64,000 nucleotides of DNA, taken from the sequence record OL615013; one strand, 5' to 3'. The notes below the pieces were generated by a model. The model had not been told where the DNA came from, did not search any database, and worked only from the letters and a program-made list of their open reading frames with translations. The position numbers and the translations under genes are program-made. The stretch comes from Shigella phage ChubbyThor. Shown here in pieces: positions 2,215-59,962 of this stretch (its first letter is position 1; each line of letters begins with the position of its first letter).

Positions 2215-5139
2215 TCAATTTGACATCTGTTTCCAGTCTGAGGAGGTTAAGCCATGTGATTTCCACCAGGAACTCGCACCTGCACTCCAGACTTCCTGTC
2301 CAATAAAACGGGGGGTTACTGTAGCCACAGGCGTAGGACCAGAGACGACAACATACCCATATTTTGCTGGGCCAGTAGCATTGTTCAGTATCGTGTCTTT
2401 GGTAATTCCAGTCGCACCATTAAACCATTCTAGGTCTGTTCCGCTCGCCCCACTAATAAACTCAGGTGAAAACTTAGTGAAACTACAGGCTGCATTTACA
2501 CGTGCGCCGTTGTATGCATTATATCCACTAGCCTGGGTATTAGTCCAACGGCCACCGATCACACTGCCGCCACTACAGCTCAGGAACCAAGCTGCGTATC
2601 TTGCGAACCCTTCCACGTTCACATTAATCAGTTCAAAACCGGAAGCACCATTACACTGAATACCATCGTTGTTTGGGACACCACTCGCGATTTGTGGGTT
2701 AGCAGCATATCCAGTTAAGTTAGCGCCATTAATGTAAATACCAGTACTTGTGTTAGTGCTGAAGAAGATACCGACACCAGAACAGTTCTGAACGCTGAGG
2801 TTGCTAATACGGATACCACGAGCATAATCGAAACTTAAAGCTCGCTCTGCCGCTGAAACAGACCGATAACCAAATCCAATATCACGCAGACGTATATTGC
2901 TCATAGTGATATTGGATGGGTTCATACCCGGTGTCACAACTTCAAAACCTTCAAAGGTGATTCCGTTACCACAGTTGGTGGCTACAACATTATCCACAAC
3001 AATGTCGGCAACGTAGCGTTTGAAACCCATAGCCCCTTGAGCGCAGTCGCGCAACACCAGGTTGGACATTGCGCAGTTACGAGTACCGCCTGCCACACTT
3101 GCAGATAAGTAGATCCCAAGGTCGCGCGTGTTTTCTACATAAAGACCATTCACCCAGCAGTTTTTGGTAGTCGCAAACATCAGACCTGAGTCGGGGGCAT
3201 TCACGAGCTTACAGTTGGTGATAGAGCATCGATTCCCACCGAACGTTAAGATGTCGGCTACAGCATACAATGTGTTGCTTGCTTGGTTTCCGTCTATATA
3301 CAAATCTATTAAATGGGTATCCTGTGCATCAAAGTTCTCGACAAGATAATATGCTTTGGTCGCATCATTACAAACATTATCTGCGAATTTCAACCAGCCG
3401 CCTGCACCCTTAACAATAGTTTTAGAACCAATATGCAGATGCGTGAACACCCAAGGGTCTCCATTTTTGTTTTTGGGTGTGATGCCAATTACGCAATGTC
3501 CGGAAACACTATCCGCATAATCCAATGCTGCCTGTAATGTTTCCTGATCTGTCATTGCGCCGAACATGAAAGCGCGAACATCAATATAGTCTTCAAATTG
3601 AATTTCAAGTTGATTACCGTCCAGGCGGTCAATTAATACCACACCGTCGGCAACTTTACCTGTGTTGGGAACAACTGAATATTTGTTGTAAATACCAGAA
3701 AGAGTTTTGCTGGCCACAATACGCCCGAGCACGGTCTGGTTCGAGTTTAGCGAGTTTCGGTCTCCTAATTCCACAGCAACGCCGCCAATAGACCCAACCC
3801 CCACATTAGACTCTAATAATTCTTGGAAAACGACCAAGCTTTCAGAAGTCGGCAAGAGCAAAGAAACAACAACATTCCCTGGTGCATATGTCAGAGTGCT
3901 CCCACTCACAGATACAACAGAAGAACCTGTCGGGATACCAGAAGGTAAGCTCCAAATCTTTTGCGCCACCACATCATAGATAACAGTCTTTCCGTCCAAT
4001 TTGGTGACAGTATCTGATGACAGAATAACCTGAGAATTTGGAACGTTCATAGAACGCGCCACTTCGTTTGGTGTACGGTCGATCTGGTTGTACAGGGTTG
4101 GGTCGCCATTAATGACGACAACAACTTCATCACCAGCTTCGAGTTCGTCGGCCAGCGTGATGATCTTCGTAACGGAGTCATAAGTGAAGCCCAGACCTTT
4201 TTGCTGGCGGGATCCATCGATAAAGATCTCAGAAACATCTTCGGCATCCACGTCCAACTCGATCTCGGTTTCACCACCCGCAGCTGATCCACTATTGTAG
4301 ATCCAAGTGATAACCGTGCCGCCGCCGGAACCACCGGAGCCATTGCCCAACTGGATCGGGACGTATTGGATGACCTGCAGCTCGGAACCTGATGGGATTG
4401 ATGGACTGAAGTCCACATTGTAACCGTTCAGGGAATACTTTGATTCCAGCAGGCGTTTGCCGTCAACATACACGTCAACGATAGAAGGTTGTGTAGTCAG
4501 CGTTACCTGAGCAGTGTCTGCCGAAACGGTTTCCGTGAAGATGGTACGACTGTAAACGCGCCCCTGACCAAGGCCGACACCAGCAGTAACAATCCAACCA
4601 CGCGCGTCTCCAGACCAGGTAAAGGTCGCAGATACGCTGTCGGTGGAGAGCGTCATAGGCTCTACAGAGCCGTACATTGGGCGACCATTTGGGTCAATGG
4701 TCAGGGGATACAGGGAGAACTTTCCATACAAGTCACAGACTGTAACAGAATCACCCACACGCGTAGGGGAAGGGAACACCACCGTAGAGACGCCTGTGGA
4801 GTTGTCTACCAGATAGCCTCGCCCTTCAGTGAGCGTTGCCGTAGAGGCATGCGGAAGGGCTTCCCAGCGGATACCACCGCCACCCAGCGGCAACCATCCA
4901 CCATTTTCGTAGAAGCCCTCAAATTCGTCGGAGTCGGCATTGTAGCGAACAGAAGACGGGAGACCTGCGTCAGCATTACCCTCAGGTAAAGTCAGGACAG
5001 CATCTGGTCCATGCTCAATCGTACCCGTGTTGAGGATACCAGCCAAAGTAGACTGCTCTTCAGCCACCAGACCGAGAGGGAAAACAGGCTGTGTTGGTTT
5101 ATTAGCCATTTCAAATACCCCTAAATGTGTTCGTTTCAT
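2215..5139 (-). CDS. tailspike / tail fibre protein with N-terminal anchor module, Gly-rich linker and beta-helix domain
   Basis: 974-aa ORF; GSGGSGGG linker; internal segment (TKLDGKTVIYDVVAQKIWSLPSGIP...) homologous to N-terminus of ORF 1..2133; likely true start is the second in-frame ATG at 5109 (SD AGGGG 8 nt upstream, late-promoter-like box at 5141-5153). Confidence 0.55.
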   Translation of the reverse strand: MKRTHLGVFEMANKPTQPVFPLGLVAEEQSTLAGILNTGTIEHGPDAVLTLPEGNADAGLPSSVRYNADSDEFEGFYENGGWLPLGGGGIRWEALPHASTATLTEGRGYLVDNSTGVSTVVFPSPTRVGDSVTVCDLYGKFSLYPLTIDPNGRPMYGSVEPMTLSTDSVSATFTWSGDARGWIVTAGVGLGQGRVYSRTIFTETVSADTAQVTLTTQPSIVDVYVDGKRLLESKYSLNGYNVDFSPSIPSGSELQVIQYVPIQLGNGSGGSGGGTVITWIYNSGSAAGGETEIELDVDAEDVSEIFIDGSRQQKGLGFTYDSVTKIITLADELEAGDEVVVVINGDPTLYNQIDRTPNEVARSMNVPNSQVILSSDTVTKLDGKTVIYDVVAQKIWSLPSGIPTGSSVVSVSGSTLTYAPGNVVVSLLLPTSESLVVFQELLESNVGVGSIGGVAVELGDRNSLNSNQTVLGRIVASKTLSGIYNKYSVVPNTGKVADGVVLIDRLDGNQLEIQFEDYIDVRAFMFGAMTDQETLQAALDYADSVSGHCVIGITPKNKNGDPWVFTHLHIGSKTIVKGAGGWLKFADNVCNDATKAYYLVENFDAQDTHLIDLYIDGNQASNTLYAVADILTFGGNRCSITNCKLVNAPDSGLMFATTKNCWVNGLYVENTRDLGIYLSASVAGGTRNCAMSNLVLRDCAQGAMGFKRYVADIVVDNVVATNCGNGITFEGFEVVTPGMNPSNITMSNIRLRDIGFGYRSVSAAERALSFDYARGIRISNLSVQNCSGVGIFFSTNTSTGIYINGANLTGYAANPQIASGVPNNDGIQCNGASGFELINVNVEGFARYAAWFLSCSGGSVIGGRWTNTQASGYNAYNGARVNAACSFTKFSPEFISGASGTDLEWFNGATGITKDTILNNATGPAKYGYVVVSGPTPVATVTPRFIGQEVWSAGASSWWKSHGLTSSDWKQMSN

Positions 5140-5153
5140 CTAGGGGTATTTAG
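5113..5153 (-). promoter_or_regulatory. late-promoter-like box CTAAATACCCC with SD-sequestering inverted repeat upstream of tailspike gene
   Basis: Minus-strand CTAAATACCCCTA = plus 5141-5153; 11-bp inverted repeat plus 5113-5123 / 5141-5151; 3' arm contains AGGGG SD for ATG 5109. Confidence 0.4.
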
Positions 5154-5161
5154 TTTTCACT

Positions 5162-6373
5162 TTAGAAAGAAGCGACTAGATTGTAGTCAACGGAGCAAGC
5201 AGTCGTCGTGTTCGCATTTGTTATCGTCAAACGAAGTTTTGAAGACACTACAGAACCCGAGAATGTCACCGTACCGGAAGTGGACTTCTGAATCAACAAC
5301 TCCGACTTGATAGTCCCGTCACGGGTGATCGTCACACGATACGTATCCACGACGTTGCCTGTACCCCATTGTGCACTGATCAACACCTGACAAAGGTTCA
5401 CCAAATCGAAGTCGGGCAACGCAGAGTTCCCCGAAGCAGAGACAGTGATGCCGCTTGGGTTGGTCTTCCCGATCTTCACACGGGCAGCAATGTCGGCGTC
5501 CAGGCTTGTCATTTTGGCGTTGTAGGTCGATGTGTTGACCTTTCCAGACAACGTGGTATTGATCGTGCCGATATCACTCTGAATGCCGCTGATGGAACTG
5601 TCCAACGCCGCCATCTTCGTGTTATACGTACTGACGTTCACTTTGTTGTTCGTCAGATCTAGTATACTGGTGTCCAGGCTAGACATCTTGGAGTTGTAAG
5701 TCGACGTGTTGACCTTCGCAGCCAGAGTGGTGTTGACAGTGTTGAACTGAGACTGGATATCCAACATGTCAGCATCGTAATCGACCACTTTCAGATACGC
5801 ATTGAAGCGCGTGTCATTGAAAATGGAAGTCACAAACGCAGATGTGTCGTACTTGACAGTGTCGGTTCCACTCACCAGTAACATGGTAGTTGGCACACCA
5901 GTACCAGAGTAAGTGACCAGATTTGTGCCGTCGAAAGTGAGTTTGTTGTAGCCGCCAGATAACAACTCGATTTTCAGACCAGAGTTAACCCCGGCAGTGT
6001 CTTCACTCACGCCGTGCTTGCGCAGCATAGACAGATTGACGCCATCAGTGGAATCAACTGGCTCATCTGCGATGGTAAGTTTCTTCCCCGTAGGGATACT
6101 GACACCAGCATTGGCTCGGATTTCTGCGGCAAAAGTCTTCCGCCCGTTGATAGTTTGTTCCCCACCGTCGGTGCGAATCACCTTATTATCCAACGTGTCG
6201 TAGATGTCATCCACAGAACGCTTCAGTTCATACGTCAGATGAGCTGAAGGAGGAAACAACGGATCATCAACAGCGAAATCGTTGATAACATCGTTCTTGC
6301 TTACTTTGTCGTCAACAGAACCAAGAATTGCGTCAATCTGCTGACCTGTATATTGACTCAGGAAATCGGCCAT
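5162..6373 (-). CDS. tail fibre protein with internal sequence repeats
   Basis: 403-aa ORF; three copies of motif VN(T/V)STYNxKMxxLD; Ser/Thr/Asn-rich; sits between baseplate genes and tailspikes. Confidence 0.5.
   Translation of the reverse strand: MADFLSQYTGQQIDAILGSVDDKVSKNDVINDFAVDDPLFPPSAHLTYELKRSVDDIYDTLDNKVIRTDGGEQTINGRKTFAAEIRANAGVSIPTGKKLTIADEPVDSTDGVNLSMLRKHGVSEDTAGVNSGLKIELLSGGYNKLTFDGTNLVTYSGTGVPTTMLLVSGTDTVKYDTSAFVTSIFNDTRFNAYLKVVDYDADMLDIQSQFNTVNTTLAAKVNTSTYNSKMSSLDTSILDLTNNKVNVSTYNTKMAALDSSISGIQSDIGTINTTLSGKVNTSTYNAKMTSLDADIAARVKIGKTNPSGITVSASGNSALPDFDLVNLCQVLISAQWGTGNVVDTYRVTITRDGTIKSELLIQKSTSGTVTFSGSVVSSKLRLTITNANTTTACSVDYNLVASF
5500..5760 (-). repeat. three imperfect direct repeats inside tail-fibre gene
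   Basis: Three related DNA segments starting near 5507, 5612 and 5685, encoding VN(T/V)STYNxKMxxLD. Confidence 0.5.
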
Positions 6374-8995: not shown

Positions 8996-9039
8996 TATCT
9001 CCATCACCTGAACTTGAATATGGTGTTGGAGATATTTAG
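8996..9039 (-). promoter_or_regulatory. late-promoter-like box CTAAATAtCtcc with SD-sequestering inverted repeat upstream of baseplate gene
   Basis: Minus-strand CTAAATA = plus 9033-9039; 7-bp inverted repeat plus 8996-9002 / 9028-9034; 3' arm is the GGAGATA SD of ATG 8992. Confidence 0.4.
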
Positions 9040-9341
9040 TGGGATGGGATTGAAACTTCCTCGCGCGTTATTTTATTATACTATCACTCGCTTCACTGCG
9101 TTCCGCTCGGATAACACCGCCTTGACAGGCAGTCCCATTCCACAGCCATGGAGGCTGCTTTTCGTTGTTCGTTAACACTCACAACTCAAAGGGCACAGCG
9201 ATACGATACAGTCTCTGAGTGGTGTAGAAAAGTAGTTTTTGCCTATTAATAAACCGCGCTCCTATTCGTTGGCCTTTAATTCAATAACACCTTCACCAAT
9301 ATAATAGTGCGGTCAATTAACCATATATTAAGGAACCTCTC

Positions 9342-9914
9342 ATGCACATCAACACTGCTATCACGAAACACATCATTCCTTTGTTAGAGAAATATGAAGG
9401 GAAGAAATCAAAGGATATTTCGTTTGAAGATATATCCGCCGAAGTGAAGCGCTTGACACGTAAAGAAGTCAATTTCCGCCGTGTCCCCCCATCTGCAGTA
9501 GATCGGGCAAAGTCAGATTTGAACACGGCTTCCACTTTCTCCTTTAATATCGATGCCACGGCGACATTGGTATCCGAATTAACGCAGTCGTCACAAGCCC
9601 GTCGCGATCGCTTCCGCCATTTATGTGTGGCCAACGACTATCCTAGCACCCGTGTCGGCATCAAGCTTGAAGCAATCCGCTCCGAGGTGTGCTTCACAGT
9701 GAACTACATCCTGGAGCCTGAAACCAGCAACATTTATTTCGCAGCCATCATCGGCTTCTATGGTACATCCATTAATGGTTGGGCTGAGCGCGTTGAATTA
9801 AAAGAGACTCTGAACAAACACAGCATCCCGTCCACCCATTATATGTCGCTGGCCGCCGCTCGCGAATATGTGTATCTGCTCGAGCGTGATGTGAAGTTAA
9901 AAGTGGTAAAATAA
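9342..9914 (+). CDS. hypothetical protein
   Basis: 190-aa ORF starting with ATG, first plus-strand gene after divergent intergenic region 9008-9341. Confidence 0.5.
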   Translation: MHINTAITKHIIPLLEKYEGKKSKDISFEDISAEVKRLTRKEVNFRRVPPSAVDRAKSDLNTASTFSFNIDATATLVSELTQSSQARRDRFRHLCVANDYPSTRVGIKLEAIRSEVCFTVNYILEPETSNIYFAAIIGFYGTSINGWAERVELKETLNKHSIPSTHYMSLAAAREYVYLLERDVKLKVVK

Positions 9915-9971
9915 CGCTTTATTCAATAAAGAATTGCAGTAAAGTTAGTTGCATGGAAGGGAGGGAACACT

Positions 9972-10118
9972 ATGTTTTACATGATGTTACTCCTCATCCT
10001 CCTGATCGGGATTACCTTTACTCTCCTGGGTCTACCCGATCAGTCCGGTAAACAGTCGCCCACTTCGGCGCATCCGGTTTTGAGTGAAGGTTCGTCCGCA
10101 CTGCTGTGGGCAGTGTAG
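9972..10118 (+). CDS. small hydrophobic peptide (48 aa)
   Basis: ATG at 9972 preceded by GGAGGGAA SD at correct spacing; N-terminal hydrophobic helix MFYMMLLLILLIGITFTLLGL; below ORF-track length cut-off. Confidence 0.3.
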   Translation: MFYMMLLLILLIGITFTLLGLPDQSGKQSPTSAHPVLSEGSSALLWAV

Positions 10119-10119
10119 C

Positions 10120-12170
10120 TCAAAGAGGAGAGGACTTTTCAAATTAGCTGGTCTGCGGTAAAGTATTAAACACGAGGGAAACAGCGCATTGAGTTAGGCA
10201 TCTAAAGCCGACCTCACTAATCCCAGTCTCAGGGGCATGCGTGAATAGAGGCGTAATATCCACCTCGCTGGTGTCAGTGGACGCACTTGACCGTCGGAGA
10301 ACGAAACTCCCTGTTGTAGCGTGATTAGCTCAGAATCAGAGAGCACCCCGTTGGCAAGTCGACACCAACATATAAGGGGAGGTCGGGGGCGCTAATCTCC
10401 ATCACGCCGACAACATTATGAGTCTTCATAGAGGGTTCATAATGTTGCGTCAAAGGGCAACACAAAGGTTCCTGTTGGTTGAATTAACTTGATTCATAGT
10501 TCCTGCTGATCTTCCCGGATTCGAAGGAGCACCAACAGGCGAGGCCGGATGCGTAAGTTCCGGCAAATCGATGGCGAGGTGGTGCATTGGTGACACGGGG
10601 TAGCGCCCAGAAGTGTGGTTCGATTCCACACCCTCGCCAACAAATTAAAGGTTTTGTCAATAACGGGTTGCAGAGTATAGTTAACCCACTGAACGAAAAG
10701 CTGTTTGGGCACTAGACAAACACTTCGATGTGAACCCAGGACATGGCGTCTTGTGCTCAAACAGGTTTTCGTTCTCGTTGCTTGCGGCTTTGCGGGTTTT
10801 AAGAAACAGACCACAAAGATAAATGCAAATGATAACGCTTATCTGGCAGTAGCTTAACAGCTAAAACACCAGTGAGGTCTTCCGACTCCTCATAACAAAA
10901 TTCGGCGCACTAAAAATAGGCGGGAGGGTGTGATTAATAAGCTCCCGCCGACATCTGAGAGGGCACTTGATCGAGGTCGGTATCCGCTATACGGGATGCT
11001 GTAAAATGAATCCACGGAGTGTCCTCCCAGATGTGTCTCACAGCGCATCAGTTTGCAGTTATGCAAGCTTCAATAAGTTAAAACGCGCCTCAGGCGTTAT
11101 GGGATAAAGCCTTAAACAGTGGAATCCCCAGGGCTGGCAATCCCTGTTAAAGAAGTAGCCGTGTGGGGGTCAGCCCCCACAACGCAAAGTAGAGTCCTCT
11201 GGACGTTGAACTTTAACCCAAGGGTTGATTCACATGGTGAACGTTCCCGGCGGCGATAGTACAAGATGAGGGGTCATTGAAGTTCAGAGAACTCTACTTT
11301 GCGGCAGGTACTGCAAAACAGTGATCATCCTGACAAGCGTGATCACTCTTCGACAAAGCATCGCATCGTGGCTATCAACCACATCCTCGCTCTAGTGATG
11401 AGTGGTGTTATGTTCTGTCGGCCAGCCTCGTTTGGTCTGAACGTTAGAGGACAAGTGCTGAAGTGTGACGAAGACACTGAAGTGCGGGTTGTTTGGTGAA
11501 TCCTGCTAAGCGCAAGGGTTGAGTGGCAAAGAAACACCTGAGGGTAAGTCAACGCCATTATTCGCCATGATAATGGCATCGGGAGGCACCCGACGCTAAA
11601 CCGTTTGGCCTGGCGAAAGCAGGCAAGTATCTGGGGTCGATCACCTTGTCCTCTCCCAGGTGCGGGTTGTAGCATGGCTGCAACTCTGATGGCTCTGGGC
11701 ATCCGAATATCAGTTGTGGATGACTAGTGAAAAGAACGTTCAGAGCCATCAGAGTTGTGACCAACCCGATCTTGCAAGCCCGTATCCCGATCTGGTTAAG
11801 ACTTGCAAGTGGAAAGCCCTGGAAAAATAAACGCCTGTTGTGAGGCTACGGTGCAAGCCAATGACCAGCAGAAGCGCGTTGCCGTGAGGCGCACAAAGAG
11901 GCCTGCATGAACTGATCATGCACAAACGGGATAAAGGGTTGACAGTCCTTGGTTGGTTACACAACAGATTAAGGGGCGATAGTTTAAGGGATAGCTGTCC
12001 GGACAGCGAATCCTCATAGAGAACGGCTGGGAGGCCAAACCCAGCAGGTGAGGTGAAAATCCTCAAACCCCGCCAAACATTGTTGGACTGCCAGCAAGCT
12101 CCGGTCTACGGCAGGCGTGATGGGATCGCGGAATTCAAATACCGCCTTGGGAGCACCTAAATAAACCAGT
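10120..12170 (+). ncRNA. ORF-free, hairpin-dense region: candidate large structured non-coding RNA(s)
   Basis: No ORF with plausible composition or RBS on either strand over about 2 kb; many stable stems (e.g. GGCGGGAG/CTCCCGCC near 10920-10950, GTGGGGG/CCCCCAC near 11163-11183, 12-bp long-range pair GCAAAGTAGAGT/ACTCTACTTTGC); strand and boundaries undetermined. Confidence 0.3.
11680..11756. repeat. 17-bp perfect inverted repeat with 43-nt loop
   Basis: caactctgatggctctg (11680-11696) is the exact reverse complement of cagagccatcagagttg (11740-11756). Confidence 0.85.
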
Positions 12171-12193
12171 TGTTCAATAAACAATTGGTGAGT

Positions 12194-12394
12194 ATGATGA
12201 AAACGTTCGGTGATTTTATTGCTGAGTGGGATGGCCTCGCCACCGACAACAAAGAGATTGTCGAGTTTGTTGAAAAGCGAGGTGACAAGTGGGTTGTCCT
12301 TGACCACACCAAGACGAAGGTTCTTGGTACACATGACACCAAAGCTGACGCTGATGCCCAATTAAGGGCGATTGAAGCGAACAAGCACGGATAA
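12194..12394 (+). CDS. small hypothetical protein (66 aa)
   Basis: ORF track 12170..12394 begins at TTG; internal ATG at 12194 with GGTGAG SD is more plausible; stop lies 1-2 nt before tRNA-Asn. Confidence 0.35.
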   Translation: MMKTFGDFIAEWDGLATDNKEIVEFVEKRGDKWVVLDHTKTKVLGTHDTKADADAQLRAIEANKHG

Positions 12395-12395
12395 A

Positions 12396-12471
12396 GACGA
12401 TGTAGTTCAGTCGGTAGAACGGTGGACTGTTAATCCATATGTCACAGGTTCAAGTCCTGTCATCGTCGCCA
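12396..12471 (+). tRNA. tRNA-Asn (anticodon GTT)
   Basis: Hand-folded cloverleaf: acceptor GACGATG/CATCGTC, D-arm GTTC/GAAC, anticodon stem GTGGA/TCCAT with loop CTGTTAA, T-arm ACAGG-TTCAAGT-CCTGT, discriminator G, CCA encoded. Confidence 0.8.
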
Positions 12472-12727
12472 GACAATGGGTGTGAACGAAAGTGAATAGG
12501 CACGAAGTACGCGACCGACAAGCTCCAAGCCTCTGTCCAATAGCCGAACGGAATCTGAAGACGACGATAGTAACGCCCACCAAATTCAGAGTGTAGAGGC
12601 TACAGTAGTGCGCACCTCACGGGTTGCTACACCGGACACTCTGATACAAATCTGCCGCTGCGTGGATTAGCTGAGGAAGGATGGCCGATGTCCTCGAGTG
12701 TGGCCCAGCACGCAGCGGTAGACCAAA

Positions 12728-12811
12728 TGTGAGTGTGGCAGAGCGGTCGAATGCAGGAGACTGTAAATCTCCCCGTAACAGCGCGGTGGTTCGAATCCAT
12801 CCACTCACACC
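12728..12811 (+). tRNA. tRNA-Tyr (anticodon GTA), type II with long variable arm
   Basis: Acceptor GTGAGTG/CACTCAC, anticodon stem GGAGA/TCTCC loop CTGTAAA, T-arm GGTGG-TTCGAAT-CCATC, discriminator A, CCA encoded. Confidence 0.75.
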
Positions 12812-12952
12812 AAACACAGTAAGCGTTGCAGCCACGCTGTGTATCTGACCAGAAGGCACTGGTCGCCAGTTAACCAATCGGCGCTGAGAAGCGCGGGGAG
12901 TTGGGCTACGGCAGATCAAATGCTCAATCGGGTGTGAAGCCCGTTCAAATTT

Positions 12953-13036
12953 CGCGGGAGCCATAGGGGTTGGACAGTAGCCGACTGATCATCGGCGACG
13001 ATCACTGGACAGGTTCGAATCCTGATCTCCCGCTCC
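12953..13036 (+). tRNA. tRNA-like element, possibly tRNA-Ile (anticodon GAT) with irregular D/T arms
   Basis: Perfect 7-bp acceptor GCGGGAG/CTCCCGC + CCA; stem-loop GCCGA-CTGATCA-TCGGC fits an anticodon arm; TTCGAAT T-loop present but T-stem has a mismatch/extra nt; could not fold a canonical D-arm by hand. Confidence 0.4.
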
Positions 13037-13040
13037 AAAT

Positions 13041-13129
13041 TGGAAGGTTGCCCGAGAGGTTTAAGGGACTCGACTGCTAATCGAGTGGGGCTTTTAGCCC
13101 CCGAAGGTTCGAATCCTTCACCTTCCGCC
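13041..13129 (+). tRNA. tRNA-Ser (anticodon GCT), type II
   Basis: Acceptor GGAAGGT/ACCTTCC, 3-bp D-stem CCC/GGG, anticodon stem CTCGA/TCGAG loop CTGCTAA, variable-arm hairpin GGGGC/GCCCC, T-arm GAAGG-TTCGAAT-CCTTC, discriminator G, CCA encoded. Confidence 0.8.
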
Positions 13130-13540
13130 AAATTTGCGATCATCGCGGAAATCCCAGACGCGAGTGGAGGCCAGGGTGAAGACTGGCACATGGGCACTGA
13201 CGGCAAAGGTGTTCTACCTCCTGGAATTGGGTGGCCTGAATGGTAGGGAAAGCAGCCAAGCGTTGTGGGTTCAACTCCCACTCACCCAGCCCCAGATGGA
13301 ATGGGTCCATCATCGCAAATCATATTTTGGGCGTGACTTCCTGAAGAGTTAGAAGGTGTGCATGCCGACTCTCTCGTAATCGGGTGTTTAGGAAGTTAAG
13401 AAAATCGCGGCGAGGATAGTGAAATGCAAATAGCTTTCTCTACGCCGACGACTTCAGGTTCGATTCCTGACGCGCTCTCCCATAAGGCAGTACCAGTGCG
13501 AAGTGTGTAGTCTTTTCAACCCATCCCCATCGATGTGGTA

Positions 13541-14915: not shown

Positions 14916-14950
14916 ATTCAGGAAATAATCTGAGATTCTCCTTTTCTATA

Positions 14951-14990
14951 CTCCTGTAGATACGCTATGATAAGCCAATGTCTACAGGAG
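14951..14990 (+). promoter_or_regulatory. SD-sequestering hairpin in 5' UTR of the PLP-enzyme gene
   Basis: 10-bp inverted repeat CTCCTGTAGA (14951-14960) / TCTACAGGAG (14981-14990); 3' arm contains the AGGAG SD, ATG at 14998. Confidence 0.45.
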
Positions 14991-14997
14991 AAATAGA

Positions 14998-16254
14998 ATG
15001 AACAAATTCGCTGCACAACCCCTCGCTCCATATATTCCGTTTCACACGTTAGGGAAAGGTCCATACAAAACGATTTTTGATGTCCTCTCTCTTCATCGTG
15101 AACATATTCACTGGGAAGACTACCTCTACAAACACACTCCGTGTGAACTCGTCCCCAACCCCGAAACTAACCAGCAGGTCTGGTTCAAGCGTGAAGATTA
15201 CTTCGCGCCGCTATCTTGTTATATGAATGGCAAGCAGGGCATCAACGGCAGCAAACTCCGTCAGGCCATCTGGCTCATGGTTGAGCACCTGAAGGCCGGA
15301 GGCTCCCCTGACATCATCCACGGCACTGTCGTTGGTAGTCCGCAGTCCCCTATGGCGACGGCAGTCTCTCGGCACTTCGGCGGCAAGACAACCACTGTAC
15401 TCGGCGCGACCAAACCCACCACTTGTATGAACCATGATATGGTGGAAATGAGTGCCTGGTTCGGTAGTGAGTTCAACTTCGTCGGCTCCGGCTACAACAG
15501 CACCATCCAACCTCGCTGTAAGAAGCTCATCGAGCAGGTGAATCCAAAGGCGTACTACCTGGAATATGGTATTACCCTGGACCACACAGTGCATTCCCCC
15601 GAGCGCATCGCAGGATTCCATATGCTGGGCGGCGAGCAGGTTGCTAACATCCCTGACCATATCACCGATCTGATCATCCCTGCTGGATCATGCAACTCAT
15701 GCACAAGCATCCTGACCGGGCTGGCGATGCACCCTAAGCCTAATCTGAAGCGTGTTTATCTGATTGGGATTGGACCAAACCGCCTGGACTTCATTGAGAG
15801 CCGCCTGCGCATCATCGGCAAACAGGCCAATCTGCCTCACATTGTCGACTTCACCCGTCGTTATCACGACAACCCAGACTATGTGCACGGCAAGAAGGAG
15901 CTTCAGCATGCCTCTAAGAGCGTTTCGCTGGCTGGCCTCCTAAGTGGTATCAGGCAGAAGGGAGAGCCAGAGGTCGTGCTTCCTCGCTTTGAGGTACACC
16001 ATTGGGATCTTCACACCACCAATTGGGTTCGTTACAATGACCTGATGGATTATCAGTGGGGTGATATCGAACTGCATCCTCGCTATGAAGGCAAGGTCAT
16101 GACCTGGATCCAGCAGAACAAGCCCGAGTTGCTCAATGAGAACACTCTGTTCTGGATCGTGGGAAGTAAACCATACATCGAGCCGATGAAGGCTGCATGC
16201 CCTGAGCTGGCTATCCCAGATGAAGTGAACGTCAACACCTTCACTCCTTCCTGA
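14998..16254 (+). CDS. PLP-dependent enzyme, fold type II (ACC deaminase / D-cysteine desulfhydrase / Trp-synthase-beta-like)
   Basis: 418-aa ORF; segment FKREDY...NGSKLRQAIWLM resembles the KREDx...GGNKxRKLE PLP-lysine region of the ACC-deaminase family. Confidence 0.5.
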   Translation: MNKFAAQPLAPYIPFHTLGKGPYKTIFDVLSLHREHIHWEDYLYKHTPCELVPNPETNQQVWFKREDYFAPLSCYMNGKQGINGSKLRQAIWLMVEHLKAGGSPDIIHGTVVGSPQSPMATAVSRHFGGKTTTVLGATKPTTCMNHDMVEMSAWFGSEFNFVGSGYNSTIQPRCKKLIEQVNPKAYYLEYGITLDHTVHSPERIAGFHMLGGEQVANIPDHITDLIIPAGSCNSCTSILTGLAMHPKPNLKRVYLIGIGPNRLDFIESRLRIIGKQANLPHIVDFTRRYHDNPDYVHGKKELQHASKSVSLAGLLSGIRQKGEPEVVLPRFEVHHWDLHTTNWVRYNDLMDYQWGDIELHPRYEGKVMTWIQQNKPELLNENTLFWIVGSKPYIEPMKAACPELAIPDEVNVNTFTPS

Positions 16255-16260
16255 TCCCTT

Positions 16261-16291
16261 CTAAATACCCCATACAACCCGTGTGGGGTAT
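16261..16291 (+). promoter_or_regulatory. late-promoter-like box CTAAATACCCC whose tail forms a hairpin with the SD of a 31-codon uORF
   Basis: CTAAATACCCC at 16261-16271; 8-bp stem ATACCCCA (16265-16272) / TGGGGTAT (16284-16291); small ORF ATG at 16294. Confidence 0.4.
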
Positions 16292-16360
16292 CTATGAAAC
16301 CTTTCTTGAATATTTCCGTGATATCGTCCTGTACAAACCCGGCCTGGCAGTGCGGGAAGC

Positions 16361-16371
16361 CTAAATACCCC
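16361..16371 (+). promoter_or_regulatory. late-promoter-like box CTAAATACCCC upstream of acidic-protein gene
   Basis: Exact second copy of CTAAATACCCCATA, 29 nt upstream of ATG 16400; GAGGA SD between. Confidence 0.45.
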
Positions 16372-16399
16372 ATATGGCTAACCCACTGAGGAACCCAAC

Positions 16400-16858
16400 A
16401 TGCCAACCTCCAAATTGTTTGAATCAGAATACACCAATGATATCCCCGTATGGACTGGTGTTCAAGACGGCATCACGATTGAGCTGTTTGATCGTGAAGA
16501 GACGGGCGCGGAAGAGATCTATGCAGGCGTTGAAGGCACTGATGTTGTTCGCGCCGCTGTAGCCCTTGCCACCTTCCTGGAAGATGCGCCGATTGATGGT
16601 GTGCCGTTCGAGGCGCACGTAGATCCCGAGGATCCAACGTCTATCATCATTACAGTGAATGGGGTGCCATACACTTCATACAGCATTGAGACGGACGAAG
16701 AGGGCAGCGGAGCGCTGTATATTGCTACTGACCTGCAGCTGGAAGACGATGAGATGGATTATCTGATTCAGAATGGGGTACTGCCGCCGTTCACAGATGA
16801 AGACCTGGACACGGAACTGGCCGCCGTCGGTGACGATGACGACTTCTGGGAAGAATAA
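16400..16858 (+). CDS. strongly acidic protein (about 40 Asp/Glu in 152 aa); candidate DNA-mimic / host-takeover protein
   Basis: ORF with GAGGA SD; composition by direct count; poly-Asp C-terminus GDDDDFWEE. Confidence 0.55.
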   Translation: MPTSKLFESEYTNDIPVWTGVQDGITIELFDREETGAEEIYAGVEGTDVVRAAVALATFLEDAPIDGVPFEAHVDPEDPTSIIITVNGVPYTSYSIETDEEGSGALYIATDLQLEDDEMDYLIQNGVLPPFTDEDLDTELAAVGDDDDFWEE

Positions 16859-21426: not shown

Positions 21427-21479
21427 TTCAATAAACCAAAGGGGGATATAATTCCCCCTGTTAACCCTTTGACAAACAG

Positions 21480-25070: not shown

Positions 25071-26280
25071 AATGCCGACGGGATATACACCCCCGGCTGA
25101 ATGGAAGTATCCGATTGACCTGGCTGTTGATTATCGCAAGCCTGAGAATCGCATGTACCTGCTCAAGGCTTGGGTGGAGGCGCTGTCCTACACCGAAGAG
25201 CACAATCAGCAGATGCGTCTGATGGACTATGCTATCGAAGTCACTGAAGGTATCAGCCTCGAACAGAAAGTCGAGCGCAAGATCTGGATGGCATTCCTTT
25301 GGGGTTGTTGCTATAACGCCATCGGTCCATGGACGATCTACAGTGAGTTCCCTGTGCCACCACAGTCCAAAGAAGAGATGCAGCGCTTCTCTGATTGGTA
25401 TAACCTGAACTTTGATCGCATGCGCTTCGATACCGACTGTCGCTACCGCAAGTCGAAGATGATTCCATGTGTTCAGTCCTATATTGACTGGCTGGCTGGC
25501 CGTACTCAATATGACGCTTTCCGTGAGATGCTGGTGTGCATCGATAAAGCAGAACAATTCACTCAGCTGTGGGACACGGCGATGTCCTGGAAATACTTCG
25601 GTCGCCTCAGTGCCTGGAACTTCCTGGAAGCCCTGAACATGGTCTTCGGGGACGAATACACCATTGACGTCCCTGGCTTCATGCTGCGTGACCGTGATGG
25701 TAGCGAGTCCAACCGCAACGGCGCGGCGTTCTTGTCCAACCGTGACGACTGGGTGACCAAGCACGGGAAGAAAAAGATCAACGGTTGTCCTATCACGGAT
25801 GAAGAGTGTGACATCCTTGAGGCCGACCTTGAGCAGGCGTTCCAGGATTGCGTGGCTGAGTTCGGGCATCTGACGTTCATCAATCGCCTGAACTTTGAAA
25901 CCTCCGGCGCATGCTGGCTGAAGAAGTTCTTCCGTGAGAAGAATACCCGTTACATTGGGTGGGATGCCGAGCGTACCTGGGATGAGATCGACTACATGGA
26001 ACGCATCTGGCCGGAGTACTCCTGTGCAGCGCTCTGGGAAGCCCGTTCGCTCTGGCTACCAGATACCCTGTTATGCGAAAAGGCACCTCCAGGGCACGTT
26101 CCAGGCGTTCAGAAGTGGAAGATGCCTGTGTTCTTTGAGACTGGCGTTCCTCTGCACATCTGGCATCTGCAAAAGGGTACGCGCTGGGAGCCTGACCAGG
26201 TGTATCAAGAATTGGGTAAACCGAAGATTGATAAACCGAAGTCCAACAGCGTCAACCTCATGGCACTCTTGAAACGCTGA
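25054..26280 (+). CDS. hypothetical protein (408 aa), candidate base-modifying transferase partner of the kinase
   Basis: Large Trp/Cys-rich ORF immediately downstream of kinase; function inferred from context only. Confidence 0.45.
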   Translation: MTHLSKMPTGYTPPAEWKYPIDLAVDYRKPENRMYLLKAWVEALSYTEEHNQQMRLMDYAIEVTEGISLEQKVERKIWMAFLWGCCYNAIGPWTIYSEFPVPPQSKEEMQRFSDWYNLNFDRMRFDTDCRYRKSKMIPCVQSYIDWLAGRTQYDAFREMLVCIDKAEQFTQLWDTAMSWKYFGRLSAWNFLEALNMVFGDEYTIDVPGFMLRDRDGSESNRNGAAFLSNRDDWVTKHGKKKINGCPITDEECDILEADLEQAFQDCVAEFGHLTFINRLNFETSGACWLKKFFREKNTRYIGWDAERTWDEIDYMERIWPEYSCAALWEARSLWLPDTLLCEKAPPGHVPGVQKWKMPVFFETGVPLHIWHLQKGTRWEPDQVYQELGKPKIDKPKSNSVNLMALLKR

Positions 26281-26312
26281 TATAAATATCCTCGCCTATA
26301 AAGTGAGGATAT
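26281..26312 (+). promoter_or_regulatory. T4-type late-promoter box TATAAATA whose tail forms an SD-sequestering hairpin
   Basis: TATAAATA at 26281-26288; 8-bp stem ATATCCTC (26286-26293) / GAGGATAT (26305-26312); ATG of small ORF at 26317. Confidence 0.4.
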
Positions 26313-26316
26313 TATC

Positions 26317-26484
26317 ATGTTACAAGATCTGTTGGTCTACGCACTTCCGGGTGTGGTTGTTGGATTCATCGCAGGTGCTCTGGTCTTCCGCAAACACGCG
26401 CAAGACGGTGAAGTGATTGTTCAGAAGGGTAAAGACATCCTGGAACAAATCGAAGCCAAACTGGATGAGCTGAAGAAAAAGTAA
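26317..26484 (+). CDS. small protein (55 aa) with N-terminal hydrophobic helix
   Basis: ATG 26317 with GAGGA SD; below ORF-track cut-off. Confidence 0.3.
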   Translation: MLQDLLVYALPGVVVGFIAGALVFRKHAQDGEVIVQKGKDILEQIEAKLDELKKK

Positions 26485-26512
26485 TCTGATTGCGATTGCG
26501 TTCTTCAATAAA

Positions 26513-26550
26513 GGGGAATGGGTTAATATTAGCCCGTTCCCCTTTCTTTT
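26513..26550 (+). terminator. intrinsic terminator
   Basis: 10-bp stem GGGGAATGGG/CCCGTTCCCC followed by TTTCTTTT; preceded by TTCTTCAATAAA motif. Confidence 0.55.
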
Positions 26551-29291: not shown

Positions 29292-29307
29292 TCGTTCTTC
29301 AATAAAA

Positions 29308-29341
29308 GGGGATAGGGTATTATTGCTCTATCCCCTTTTTC
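29308..29341 (+). terminator. intrinsic terminator
   Basis: Stem GGGGATAG/CTATCCCC followed by TTTTT; preceded by GTTCTTCAATAAA. Confidence 0.55.
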
Positions 29342-51339: not shown

Positions 51340-51348
51340 AATTTAGTC

Positions 51349-51380
51349 CTAAATAGCCATAACACTCTATCTATTTAAGG
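51349..51380 (+). promoter_or_regulatory. late-promoter-like box CTAAATAG with downstream inverted copy overlapping the SD
   Basis: CTAAATAG 51349-51356; inverted copy CTATTTAAGG 51371-51380; ATG 51390. Confidence 0.35.
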
Positions 51381-51389
51381 GCTGAGACC

Positions 51390-52358
51390 ATGTCCGACTT
51401 CAAAAAGACAATCGATAAGATCAAAGTTCTGAACACGAAGGGATTGTCCCAGGCTCAGAAGCAATTGACTTATCCCCTGGACGTCACTGGGGGTAAGACC
51501 CTGGGCCACTATGTCCTATTCAACATCAACCGCATCTCCGGTTCATCTTACGGTGACACGGCTACCCAGACTGTCGAGAACCCAATACAGAACCCTCTGG
51601 GGAATACTCCTGTGGTCTATGGGTCCAAGTCTGGTTCCATCACCAAATATGCATGGGCGCGTCACGTTCGCTCGAACGAATCCATCGTCCTGTGTATGCC
51701 AGAGTCCATTACAACCAACTATGGCGTTGGCTGGAATGGCAGTGAGCTGGGGCTGGCTGGAATGGGGGCACAGTTCCTTTCCCGCGCCGCCCAAGACATG
51801 ACTCAGTTTAAACTGGGTGATGCATTGAACGTCGGGAAGGAGATGGGGCGATTCGCTGCCACCAAGGCCATTCAGTCGGCCTCTGAGTCTATTCCGTTCC
51901 TACCGACCATTAACGCCCATGACACCCTTGAGTTGTTCACAGGCACCATGACCAACCCGTATGTGGAGATGATCTTCCAGGGCGTCCGCAACCGTGAGAT
52001 TCCATTTACATTCAAATTCACGCCGCGATCTCAGAAGGAAGCCAAGATGGTCCGTGAGATCATCCGTCTGTTCAAGATGCACATGTACCCTGAGTACAAG
52101 TACAACAAGAACTCCAGTGCCTTCTATCTGCATCCATCGACCTTTGATATCACGTTCATGGTCAATGGTGAGCGTAACCAATGGCTCCACCGCATCTCCA
52201 CCTGCGTGCTGTCCAACATGTTCGTCAACGAGACGCCGGACAGTTCATACGCGGTTCACAAAGATGATGGTATCGTGTCCACGCAGGTTGACATGACCTT
52301 CATCGAACTGGAGCCTCTGCATAAAGGGCGCTTTGAAACCGAAGGCGATAGCTTCTAA
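51390..52358 (+). CDS. tail tube / baseplate-tube junction protein (gp48/gp54-like)
   Basis: 322 aa; first gene of plus-strand late operon; assignment by size/order/composition. Confidence 0.35.
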   Translation: MSDFKKTIDKIKVLNTKGLSQAQKQLTYPLDVTGGKTLGHYVLFNINRISGSSYGDTATQTVENPIQNPLGNTPVVYGSKSGSITKYAWARHVRSNESIVLCMPESITTNYGVGWNGSELGLAGMGAQFLSRAAQDMTQFKLGDALNVGKEMGRFAATKAIQSASESIPFLPTINAHDTLELFTGTMTNPYVEMIFQGVRNREIPFTFKFTPRSQKEAKMVREIIRLFKMHMYPEYKYNKNSSAFYLHPSTFDITFMVNGERNQWLHRISTCVLSNMFVNETPDSSYAVHKDDGIVSTQVDMTFIELEPLHKGRFETEGDSF

Positions 52359-59849: not shown

Positions 59850-59962
59850 GTGGTGTCTCCAGGGTTATATGTGCTGCTATTATAACCCTGGCGACTTCAA
59901 TAGATTATTGGCGGGTGCGGGATCTTGCCTGGCTGACGATGAGGTCAGTATGTAGTCCTCAG

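Follow-up and report, generated by a model that had tools for sequence, protein, structure and literature searches.

The gene for a pyridoxal phosphate (PLP)-dependent decarboxylase in Shigella phage ChubbyThor (sequence record OL615013) starts inside a very stable hairpin that buries its ribosome-binding site (RBS). We analyzed a stretch of 64,000 nucleotides (nt) of this record, referred to here as the window, in which the hairpin is part of a 69-nt cassette (14932-15000) of extreme conservation. Divergent relatives have re-invented the occlusion of the Shine-Dalgarno (SD) sequence with different stems, and hairpins of similar design recur throughout the genome. We surmise that the hairpin is a translational insulator of the type found at the T4 genes e, soc, 49 and I-TevI, where the origin of a transcript decides whether it is translated. 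We would give this reading an even chance of being right.

The sequence at 14940-15000 reads ccttttctatACTCCTGTAGAtacgctatgataagccaatgTCTACAGGAGaaatagaATG. It contains CTCCTGTAGA (14951-14960) and, 20 nt further on, its exact reverse complement TCTACAGGAG (14981-14990). The SD sequence AGGAG (14986-14990) coincides with the end of the second copy and is separated from the ATG (14998-15000) by 7 nt (14991-14997). A sequence-only reading of the window had pointed to a perfect 10-bp inverted repeat with a 20-nt loop and to a stable hairpin burying the SD. Reading and folding the sequence bear out both observations, and correct the 8 nt then assigned to the gap between SD and ATG. Upon folding, the main stem extends to 12 pairs (14951-14962 with 14979-14990, one U.G among them). 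An outer stem of 6 pairs (14944-14949 with 14993-14998) continues up to the A of the AUG. The whole hairpin (14944-14998) therefore comprises 18 pairs; its 3' arm contains the SD, and its outer stem takes in the A of the AUG. The minimum free energy is -24.2 kcal/mol over 59 nt (z = -6.96), and none of 200 shuffled sequences was as stable. The cassette is composed of the following elements:

14932..14943, plus strand: conserved 5' block GAGATTCTCCTT, the sharp upstream edge of the invariant cassette, with the distal anti-SD TTCTCCT at 14937-14943
14944..14949, plus strand: TTCTAT, 5' strand of the outer stem and candidate upstream promoter box (5/6 to TTCAAT)
14947..14952, plus strand: TATACT, -10-like (5/6 to TATAAT), overlapping the start of the 5' arm and part of TATACTCC (14947-14954)
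14951..14962, plus strand: 5' arm CTCCTGTAGATA, the anti-SD CTCC plus an 8-nt extension
14963..14978, plus strand: loop CGCTATGATAAGCCAA, 16 nt, holding a -10-like TATGAT (14966-14971) and a non-conserved AUG (14967)
14979..14990, plus strand: 3' arm TGTCTACAGGAG, carrying the SD AGGAG
14993..14998, plus strand: ATAGAA, 3' strand of the outer stem, followed by the start codon

Since the window holds seven perfect repeats of at least 10 bp with loops of 3-30 nt (1.6 +/- 1.3 in dinucleotide shuffles), the bare inverted repeat could be due to chance. The position over the SD, the rank of the gene by RBS-opening cost and the conservation in 266 genomes exclude this explanation. The cost was calculated as the free energy required to open positions -15 to +3 of the annotated Ag3 reference genes that correspond to the window (n = 90). 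With 20.6 kcal/mol, orf226, the decarboxylase gene of Ag3, ranks third of the 90 (median 5.9, sd 4.3), and its CBA120 ortholog ranks 8th of 101. The calculated cost depends steeply on the 5' end of the transcript: it amounts to 19-20 kcal/mol for starts at or before 14951, drops to 11.9 kcal/mol at 14955 and reaches about 5 kcal/mol, which is below the genome median, for all starts at or beyond 14959.

The hairpin does not resemble an intrinsic terminator. The stem is followed by AAAUAGAAUG on the plus strand and by UAUAGAAAAGG on the minus strand, and a terminator scan was silent at this locus. A search of the locus against Rfam 15 with E values up to 10 returned a single chance-level match to mir-2070 on the opposite strand (15.6 bits against a gathering threshold of 95). 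At gathering thresholds, Rfam reported three tRNAs in the whole window and nothing else. Neither the window nor the whole Ag3 genome contains further copies of the cassette, of its GAGAtTCTCC palindrome, of the 3' arm, of the loop or of the upstream block. Since no other copies were found, the cassette is not a repeat family or a regulon motif, and no trans-acting RNA partner is evident.

The gene behind the hairpin encodes the last enzyme of a DNA hypermodification pathway. With 99.2% identity over 2 kb around the hairpin, the window is closely related to Shigella phage Ag3 (phiSboM-AG3; Ackermannviridae, Agtrevirus). The open reading frame (ORF) is 99.5% identical to Ag3 orf00226 and is an ortholog of ViI gp226. 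The latter protein is among five products that are sufficient for making 5-(2-aminoethoxy)methyl-2'-deoxyuridine (5-NeOmdU) (PMC5889632). Purified ViI gp226 is a PLP-dependent decarboxylase that converts O-serinyl-thymidine in DNA to 5-NeOmdU as the last post-replicative step (PMC8989533), and "up to half" of the thymidines in ViI DNA are modified. The gene had been called a likely DNA-modification enzyme from the sequence alone; this assignment is confirmed by the experimentally characterized ortholog and by a Pfam PALP match, which is sub-threshold (E = 1.1e-7, 32 bits against a cut-off of 35). The gene and its upstream neighbor are located as follows:

14998..16254, plus strand: PLP-dependent decarboxylase gene, Ag3 orf00226/gp188, 418 aa
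14406..14915, plus strand: neighbor upstream in the same orientation, Ag3 orf00225, 169 aa, from which read-through transcripts probably come

A consensus scan found no terminator-like site between 14473 and 16176. In most relatives the orf00225-type gene is missing or replaced, and this region cannot be aligned to CBA120. One tblastn alignment that continued upstream across the intergenic region was rejected as an ungapped over-extension. The upstream neighbors in LIMEstone1 and CBA120 include a structural (late) gene.

The cassette itself is found in all 266 GenBank relatives with an identity of 95% or better, which rises to 99% or better in 85 of them. These phages infect hosts that include Salmonella, Escherichia, Klebsiella, Dickeya, Shigella, Enterobacter, Serratia and Yersinia. 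In most of the relatives the BLAST match stops just past the ATG, and the upstream gene is not homologous. Compared with CBA120, the cassette is 98.6% identical, which places it in the top 1% of 72-nt windows; the mean over the aligned sequence of the window is 77%. There is one difference in 69 nt, whereas four-fold degenerate sites in the adjacent gene are 48-52% diverged (Ag3 versus CBA120 or Madison; P ~1e-18 to 1e-20). A comparison of 43 loci identified nine variants. Three substitutions fall into the stem: C14951U (a U.G pair), A14958G (a G.U pair) and U14981C, which introduces an A.C break near the loop end. Two of the three, C14951U and A14958G, thus keep wobble pairs in the plus-strand RNA. 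The third, which is typical of the CBA120 group, leaves 9+2 pairs and an opening cost of still 15.9 kcal/mol. Unpaired positions vary at 14932, 14937, 14964 and 14973, so that only two loop positions are affected. The loops of Ag3 and CBA120 are identical; those of other RBS-hairpin cassettes differ by about 25%.

More distant relatives hide the SD in other ways. Miltonvirus (phiMAM1, 3M and Kevin) and Nezavisimistyvirus (Bue1 and Ea2809) retain AGATTCTCCTT, a GTATACAAT box and the SD, and occlude the SD with other stem sequences and in other registers than the Ag3 type. In phiMAM1, UCUCCUUGGGUAUUGAG is paired with CUCAAUCACUCAAGGAGA, and the Erwinia phages use yet another register. In all five phages the 5' arm is formed by UCUCCUU, which is homologous to TTCTCCT at 14937-14943; the distal anti-SD of the Ag3-type cassette is therefore the homolog of the SD-pairing strand in the Serratia and Erwinia relatives. 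A G.U pair changes to G-C between Kevin and phiMAM1. Because the pairing partners have changed between clades, yet the SD stays buried, SD occlusion is probably maintained by selection. We consider this persistence to be the best structural evidence. The loops of these phages also hold a conserved TACAAT; TTGGGT, likewise conserved, precedes it at a distance of 17 nt, and the spacer between the two varies in sequence. This arrangement, TTGGGT-N17-TACAAT, resembles a promoter footprint.

The decarboxylase gene is not the only one of its kind. Other genes with a top-ranked opening cost share a common design: a promoter box within the 5' arm or next to it, then an anti-SD, and the SD as part of the 3' arm. 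The hairpin of the tail-fibre-like gene orf213 (aaCTAAATACCCCTAGATG...CATTTAGGGGTATTTgaaATG) and that of orf248 (TATAAATATCCTCGC...GTGAGGATATT) are examples, the baseplate gene orf37 and the gp6 gene orf217 have the same design, and in the DNA ligase gene orf45 a TATAAT box lies within CCAGGGTTATAAT...ATAACCCTGGAGA. The list for CBA120 is topped by the same orthologs, and C-to-U changes in the stem of its ligase gene preserve G.U pairs. Six or more window genes besides the decarboxylase gene have such a hairpin, whose 5' arm includes a CTAAATACCCC, TATAAATA or TATAAT box and whose 3' arm provides the SD for the gene that follows. Cassettes of this class are located at:

5103-5153, minus strand
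9000-9045, minus strand
59855-59895, minus strand
12150-12205, plus strand
16255-16300, plus strand
26275-26325, plus strand
51340-51400, plus strand

The association between box and hairpin is also evident from counts. In Ag3, a TAAATA box at -60 to -13 is found for five of the eight genes with an opening cost of at least 14 kcal/mol, and for 6 of the 82 other genes (p = 5e-4). The corresponding numbers for CBA120 are 6/8 and 7/93 (p = 3e-5). In both phages the PLP gene and the DNA ligase gene are exceptions, as they lack TAAATA. Two motifs, CTAAATAcCcc and TTCAAT-N14-TATAAT, have been listed for Ackermannviridae (PMC7283392), and the "cCcc" tail of the former, late motif appears to act as the anti-SD in the folded RNAs. 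The hairpin architecture is not described in the accessible Ackermannviridae papers that list regulatory motifs, and a 2024 review of the family mentions neither transcription nor hairpins. The pattern of RBS hairpins in Ackermannviridae is apparently wider than one gene and undescribed.

The exact late-box form CTAAATACCCC occurs at 5143 (minus strand), 16261 and 16361. The box at 16261 makes a hairpin, CTAAATACCCCATAC / GTGTGGGGTATCT, that ends at an ATG at ~16299. No ORF of at least 40 aa begins at this ATG; the hairpin is also present in CBA120, where a real gene, orf229, follows it. At 16261-16400, Ag3 therefore seems to have lost a gene and kept its regulatory cassette.

Which promoter could be embedded in the decarboxylase cassette? 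The sequence-only reading had taken TATACTCC for a degenerate late box. This proposal fails, since every late-type box in the window and in CBA120 keeps the TAAATA core. Measured against the late consensus (CTAAATAcCcc / TATAAATA, with TAAATA at -10), the cassette reads TTCTATACTCC, from which the core is missing; with 10 matches against 10.8 expected, TTCTATACTCC shows no enrichment. A better match is TTCTAT (14944-49)-N16-TATGAT (14966-71), which agrees with TTCAAT-N14-TATAAT in 10 of 12 positions, five of six in each hexamer, with a spacer of 16 instead of 14 nt. In the whole Ag3 genome the TTCAAT/TATAAT class peaks at N14 (50 occurrences against 11.6 expected). Perfect members also occur at N15, in front of the 5-hydroxymethyl-2'-deoxyuridine (5-hmdU) kinase gene orf67, and at N16; the DNA ligase cassette carries ATCTAT-N15-TATAAT in its RBS hairpin. 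A -10 box in a hairpin loop is also seen at orf67 and orf160, which are hypermodification genes as well. TATACT (14947-52) has no conserved -35 and no TTCAAT partner at N14-N17. We regard TTCTAT-N16-TATGAT as the most plausible candidate for an internal promoter and TATACT as a weaker alternative. A transcript starting about 7 nt past TATGAT (~14977-79) would have a 20-nt leader with a free SD, and one starting about 7 nt past TATACT (~14958-14961) would also have an open RBS by calculation.

Many TTCAAT-N14-TATAAT promoters have a G-rich spacer and a -10 box in the loop of a terminator-like hairpin that is followed by a T run. These loci look like compact terminator-plus-promoter cassettes:

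Window, 21427-21452
Window, 26504-26548
Window, 29298-29339
Ag3 reference, L172 ~6200-6260, minus strand
Ag3 reference, L173 ~10230-10290, minus strand

Examples include orf67 (the kinase, annotated as small terminase) and orf160.

We propose the following mechanism. Messenger RNA entering from upstream, that is, from orf224/orf225 here and from late structural genes in relatives, would fold 14944-14998 into the 18-pair hairpin. With the SD and the initial A of the AUG hidden in this structure, the decarboxylase would not be translated from read-through mRNA. Transcripts that start inside the cassette would lack the 5' arm, could not form the hairpin and would be translated normally. The candidate promoter TTCTAT-N16-TATGAT, with its -10 box in the hairpin loop, is predicted to start such transcripts at ~14977-14979. 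The last hypermodification enzyme would thus depend on its own promoter, whatever gene module sits upstream. That read-through transcripts exist, that the promoter inside the cassette fires, and at which time it does so are inferences. Translational gating had been suggested earlier, with temperature, a trans factor or promoter choice as its possible basis. Of these, promoter choice fits best, because six or more other genes of the window embed a promoter box in an RBS hairpin and because the RBS opens for starts at or beyond 14959; temperature does not fit.

Several observations weigh against this mechanism. A scan for the sigma-70 consensus reported nothing at the hairpin locus, and a search for TTCAAT-N14-TATAAT with its fixed spacer gave no match there. 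Matches to the N16 variant with up to two mismatches number 18 in the genome against 11.7 expected, which is statistically weak. Literature searches gave no usable transcriptome or transcription start site (TSS) map for any member of the Ackermannviridae. The candidate -10 boxes of Ag3-type and Milton-type cassettes are not at identical positions. Double compensatory changes are absent from the Ag3-type clade; covariation is uninformative here as 15 of the 18 pairs never vary, and paired and unpaired positions are equally invariant. A hairpin combined with a promoter does not obviously explain the fixation of every nucleotide, including GAGATTCTCCTT, across four genera. LIMEstone1 provides a natural allele and lives with its PLP gene detached from the hairpin. 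The more distant Vibrio phages are without a strong RBS hairpin and have a terminator plus a TATAAT-like box, and 74 environmental homologs exhibit only background RBS structure (median 5.9 kcal/mol). The RBS hairpin is thus specific to enterobacterial Ackermannviridae.

The hairpin could also function without any internal promoter, as a constitutive attenuator. In this case all decarboxylase mRNA would bear the hairpin and be translated poorly, possibly with the pyrimidine-rich segment 14932-14943 as a standby site. The stable hairpin in every relative, the lack of a canonical promoter detected at the locus and the conserved, unpaired U/C-rich tract directly 5' of the stem are consistent with this idea. 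Standby sites beside stable RBS hairpins are reportedly established (de Smit and van Duin; tisB). However, an opening cost of ~20 kcal/mol, ~15 kcal/mol above the genome median, is expected to cut initiation by two to three orders of magnitude. This is a steep cost for an enzyme that acts on a large share of the thymidines in phage DNA. The same genomes pair this architecture with recognizable promoters inside the hairpin, and the invariance of the loop would be left unexplained. We therefore consider a simple attenuator unlikely. Purifying selection on every nucleotide, including the 16-nt loop and 12 nt upstream, exceeds the needs of a simple stem and could point to a phage factor that opens, closes or cleaves the hairpin in a sequence-specific manner and so times decarboxylase synthesis. 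Such a factor might be the RegA-like translational repressor orf00162, a different RNA-binding protein or helicase, a small RNA or an RNase. Ag3 does encode a RegA homolog, and the AU-rich AAAUAGAAUGAA around the AUG is the part that LIMEstone1 retained. On the other hand, the window contains no second copy of an arm or the loop that could encode an anti-antisense RNA, no Rfam family matches, and promoter plus hairpin accounts for the similar conservation of other cassettes, all of which makes a trans factor rather improbable. The RegA-like gene is annotated at L173 11179-11643 (minus strand) in the Ag3 reference, outside the window, and its product might act in trans on start regions rich in A and U, such as AAAUAGAAUGAA; the CBA120 paper identified no translation-level regulators in the family. 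About equally improbable is a variant in which the invariant cassette is, beyond promoter and hairpin, the site of a middle-mode transcription factor or of an RNA-binding protein that couples production of the final hypermodification enzyme to replication, with the ligase cassette as second member of the regulon. Ackermannviridae are without MotA/AsiA.

We give still less credence to the possibility that the conserved element acts at the DNA level, as recombination linker, homing-endonuclease target or protein-binding palindrome, and that the RNA hairpin is incidental. Both flanks of the cassette are mosaic, and in LIMEstone1 the endonuclease gene F-LimX is inserted exactly at its right edge. 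Moreover, conserved regulatory cassettes are said to be known as shuffling junctions in T4-type phages (promoter-early stem-loops, PeSLs; attributed to Arbiol et al. 2010). Against this possibility, the stem substitutions yield G.U or U.G pairs on the plus strand only, SD occlusion is kept in divergent clades while the arm sequences change, the 3' arm is a functional SD at optimal spacing, and a 10-bp palindrome with a 20-bp spacer would be unusual as a protein site. F-LimX is confined to some limestoneviruses and cannot account for conservation in 266 genomes. Coupling to translation of the loop is highly improbable. The AUG at 14967 opens a 9-codon upstream ORF (uORF) that ends with UAG at 14994-96, 1 nt before the main AUG (UAGAAUG), so that its translation might unfold the 3' arm and allow re-initiation, and phiMAM1 and 3M have an AUG at the homologous loop position. 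No SD precedes this AUG, however, and the uORF is not conserved, as the AUG is missing in Kevin, Bue1 and Ea2809. An RNA thermometer, in which the hairpin melts at higher temperature and allows translation, is hardly credible at all, and shares with the present case only the general resemblance of an SD-occluding hairpin. Known RNA thermometers are weak, mismatch-rich stems. The calculated opening cost decreases from 23.7 kcal/mol at 20 °C to 21.3 (30 °C), 19.6 (37 °C), 18.2 (42 °C) and 15.9 kcal/mol (50 °C), so that, unlike ROSE or fourU elements, the SD helix would not melt at physiological temperatures, and the identical element occurs in phages of hosts from plant pathogens to enterics. 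The idea of temperature gating is not borne out by these numbers.

The cassette has a sharp upstream edge. The 3' ends of the upstream genes differ among relatives and fall into at least three classes, and conservation begins at 14932 in all of them. The right boundary is hypervariable:

15007..15069, plus strand: lineage-specific N-terminal insertion of ~21 codons after codon 3 of the decarboxylase gene

Most relatives align to the decarboxylase only from residue 24, and identity to CBA120 falls to 14-46% at 15000-15100. The sequence after ATGAAC varies in length and content among lineages; those other than Ag3 have unrelated insertions of various lengths. The cassette forms a mosaic junction. 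The homing endonuclease gene F-LimX of LIMEstone1 uses the ATG of the cassette as its start (ATGAACAAGATATGC...), following codon 3 of the PLP gene, and the PLP gene is re-created behind a duplicated 12-nt core, AAATAGAATGAA. The sister phage phiD3 has the uninterrupted arrangement of cassette and PLP gene. The junctions are found at:

LIMEstone1, L169 1490-1560 and 3140-3170: F-LimX junctions
phiD3, L002 1425-1510: corresponding region for comparison

F-LimX has captured the hairpin-gated start site in LIMEstone1. The hypervariable segment 15007-15069 may contain the scars of endonuclease gain and loss.

The closest precedents for an insulator of this kind are the T4 genes e, soc, 49 and I-TevI. 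Messages that read into these genes from upstream fold up and remain silent; those initiated at the embedded promoter are devoid of the 5' strand and can be translated (PMC3014915). The decarboxylase gene shares with them an SD and AUG in a stable hairpin and, as a thermodynamic prediction, an accessible RBS in truncated transcripts. Ackermannviridae are T4-related and encode homologs of gp55, gp33 and gp45, and canonical TAAATA-box hairpins occur at six or more other genes of the window. In contrast to the T4 examples, the candidate box in the present cassette is of the early type, with the -10 element in the loop instead of the 5' arm, and is not a late promoter. The gene encodes a DNA-modification enzyme and not a lysis, head-decoration or endonuclease function. 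The cassette is far more invariant in sequence than structure alone requires. The gated endonuclease start of I-TevI finds a parallel in the capture of a gated start by F-LimX. The mechanism class is textbook T4 biology, and the hairpin is not surprising in kind.

Fold-back inhibition in IS10/Tn10, reportedly described by Davis, Simons and Kleckner in 1985, is said to shield the transposase from external promoters. There, too, read-through from outside forms a hairpin that hides the RBS, and the element's own promoter starts inside the hairpin. Such insulation against whatever lies upstream is in keeping with the mosaic modules in front of the cassette; the differences are that the gene considered here is a phage metabolic gene instead of a transposase, and that it has no antisense RNA partner. 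The motifs published for Ackermannviridae come from the same genomes. The CCCC tail of the late motif is the presumptive anti-SD in the hairpins, and the cassette matches the second motif in 10 of 12 positions; it differs by the lack of TAAATA and by a spacer of 16 nt instead of 14. PeSLs of T4-type phages resemble the cassette as conserved combinations of promoter and stem-loop at the junction of shuffled modules. They occur in multiple copies per genome, in contrast to the present cassette, which is single-copy and occludes an RBS.

Other features of the window lie in the tRNA region. In a comparison with NC_013693 135058-139012 (window 9340-13130) the coordinate offsets shift by about +83, -85 and -81 nt across the tRNA region, which implies two deletions of ~80-85 nt relative to the Ag3 reference. 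The window contains three tRNAs (Asn, Tyr and Ser-gct) compared to four in the reference; the annotated tRNA-Ser(tga) is missing. Patches at ~10150-11950 (~1.8 kb without annotated genes) and 12948-13135 are at least 98.6% identical to CBA120, compared to a mean of 77%. ARAGORN and Rfam identified no RNA gene in the patches at ~10150-11950, which could be unannotated small ORFs or non-coding RNAs.

Taken at its own strength, the insulator model means that the last enzyme of 5-NeOmdU synthesis is probably kept off read-through messages, a property relevant to expression and engineering of this pathway and to Ackermannviridae used as therapeutic phages. The genomes of ViI-like phages are not clearly divided into early, middle and late blocks, and hardly any of their promoters have been mapped; the cassettes yield precise TSS predictions for a family that lacks transcript maps. 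The recurrence of the design suggests that these phages systematically insulate their interspersed early and late genes by means of promoter-embedded RBS hairpins.

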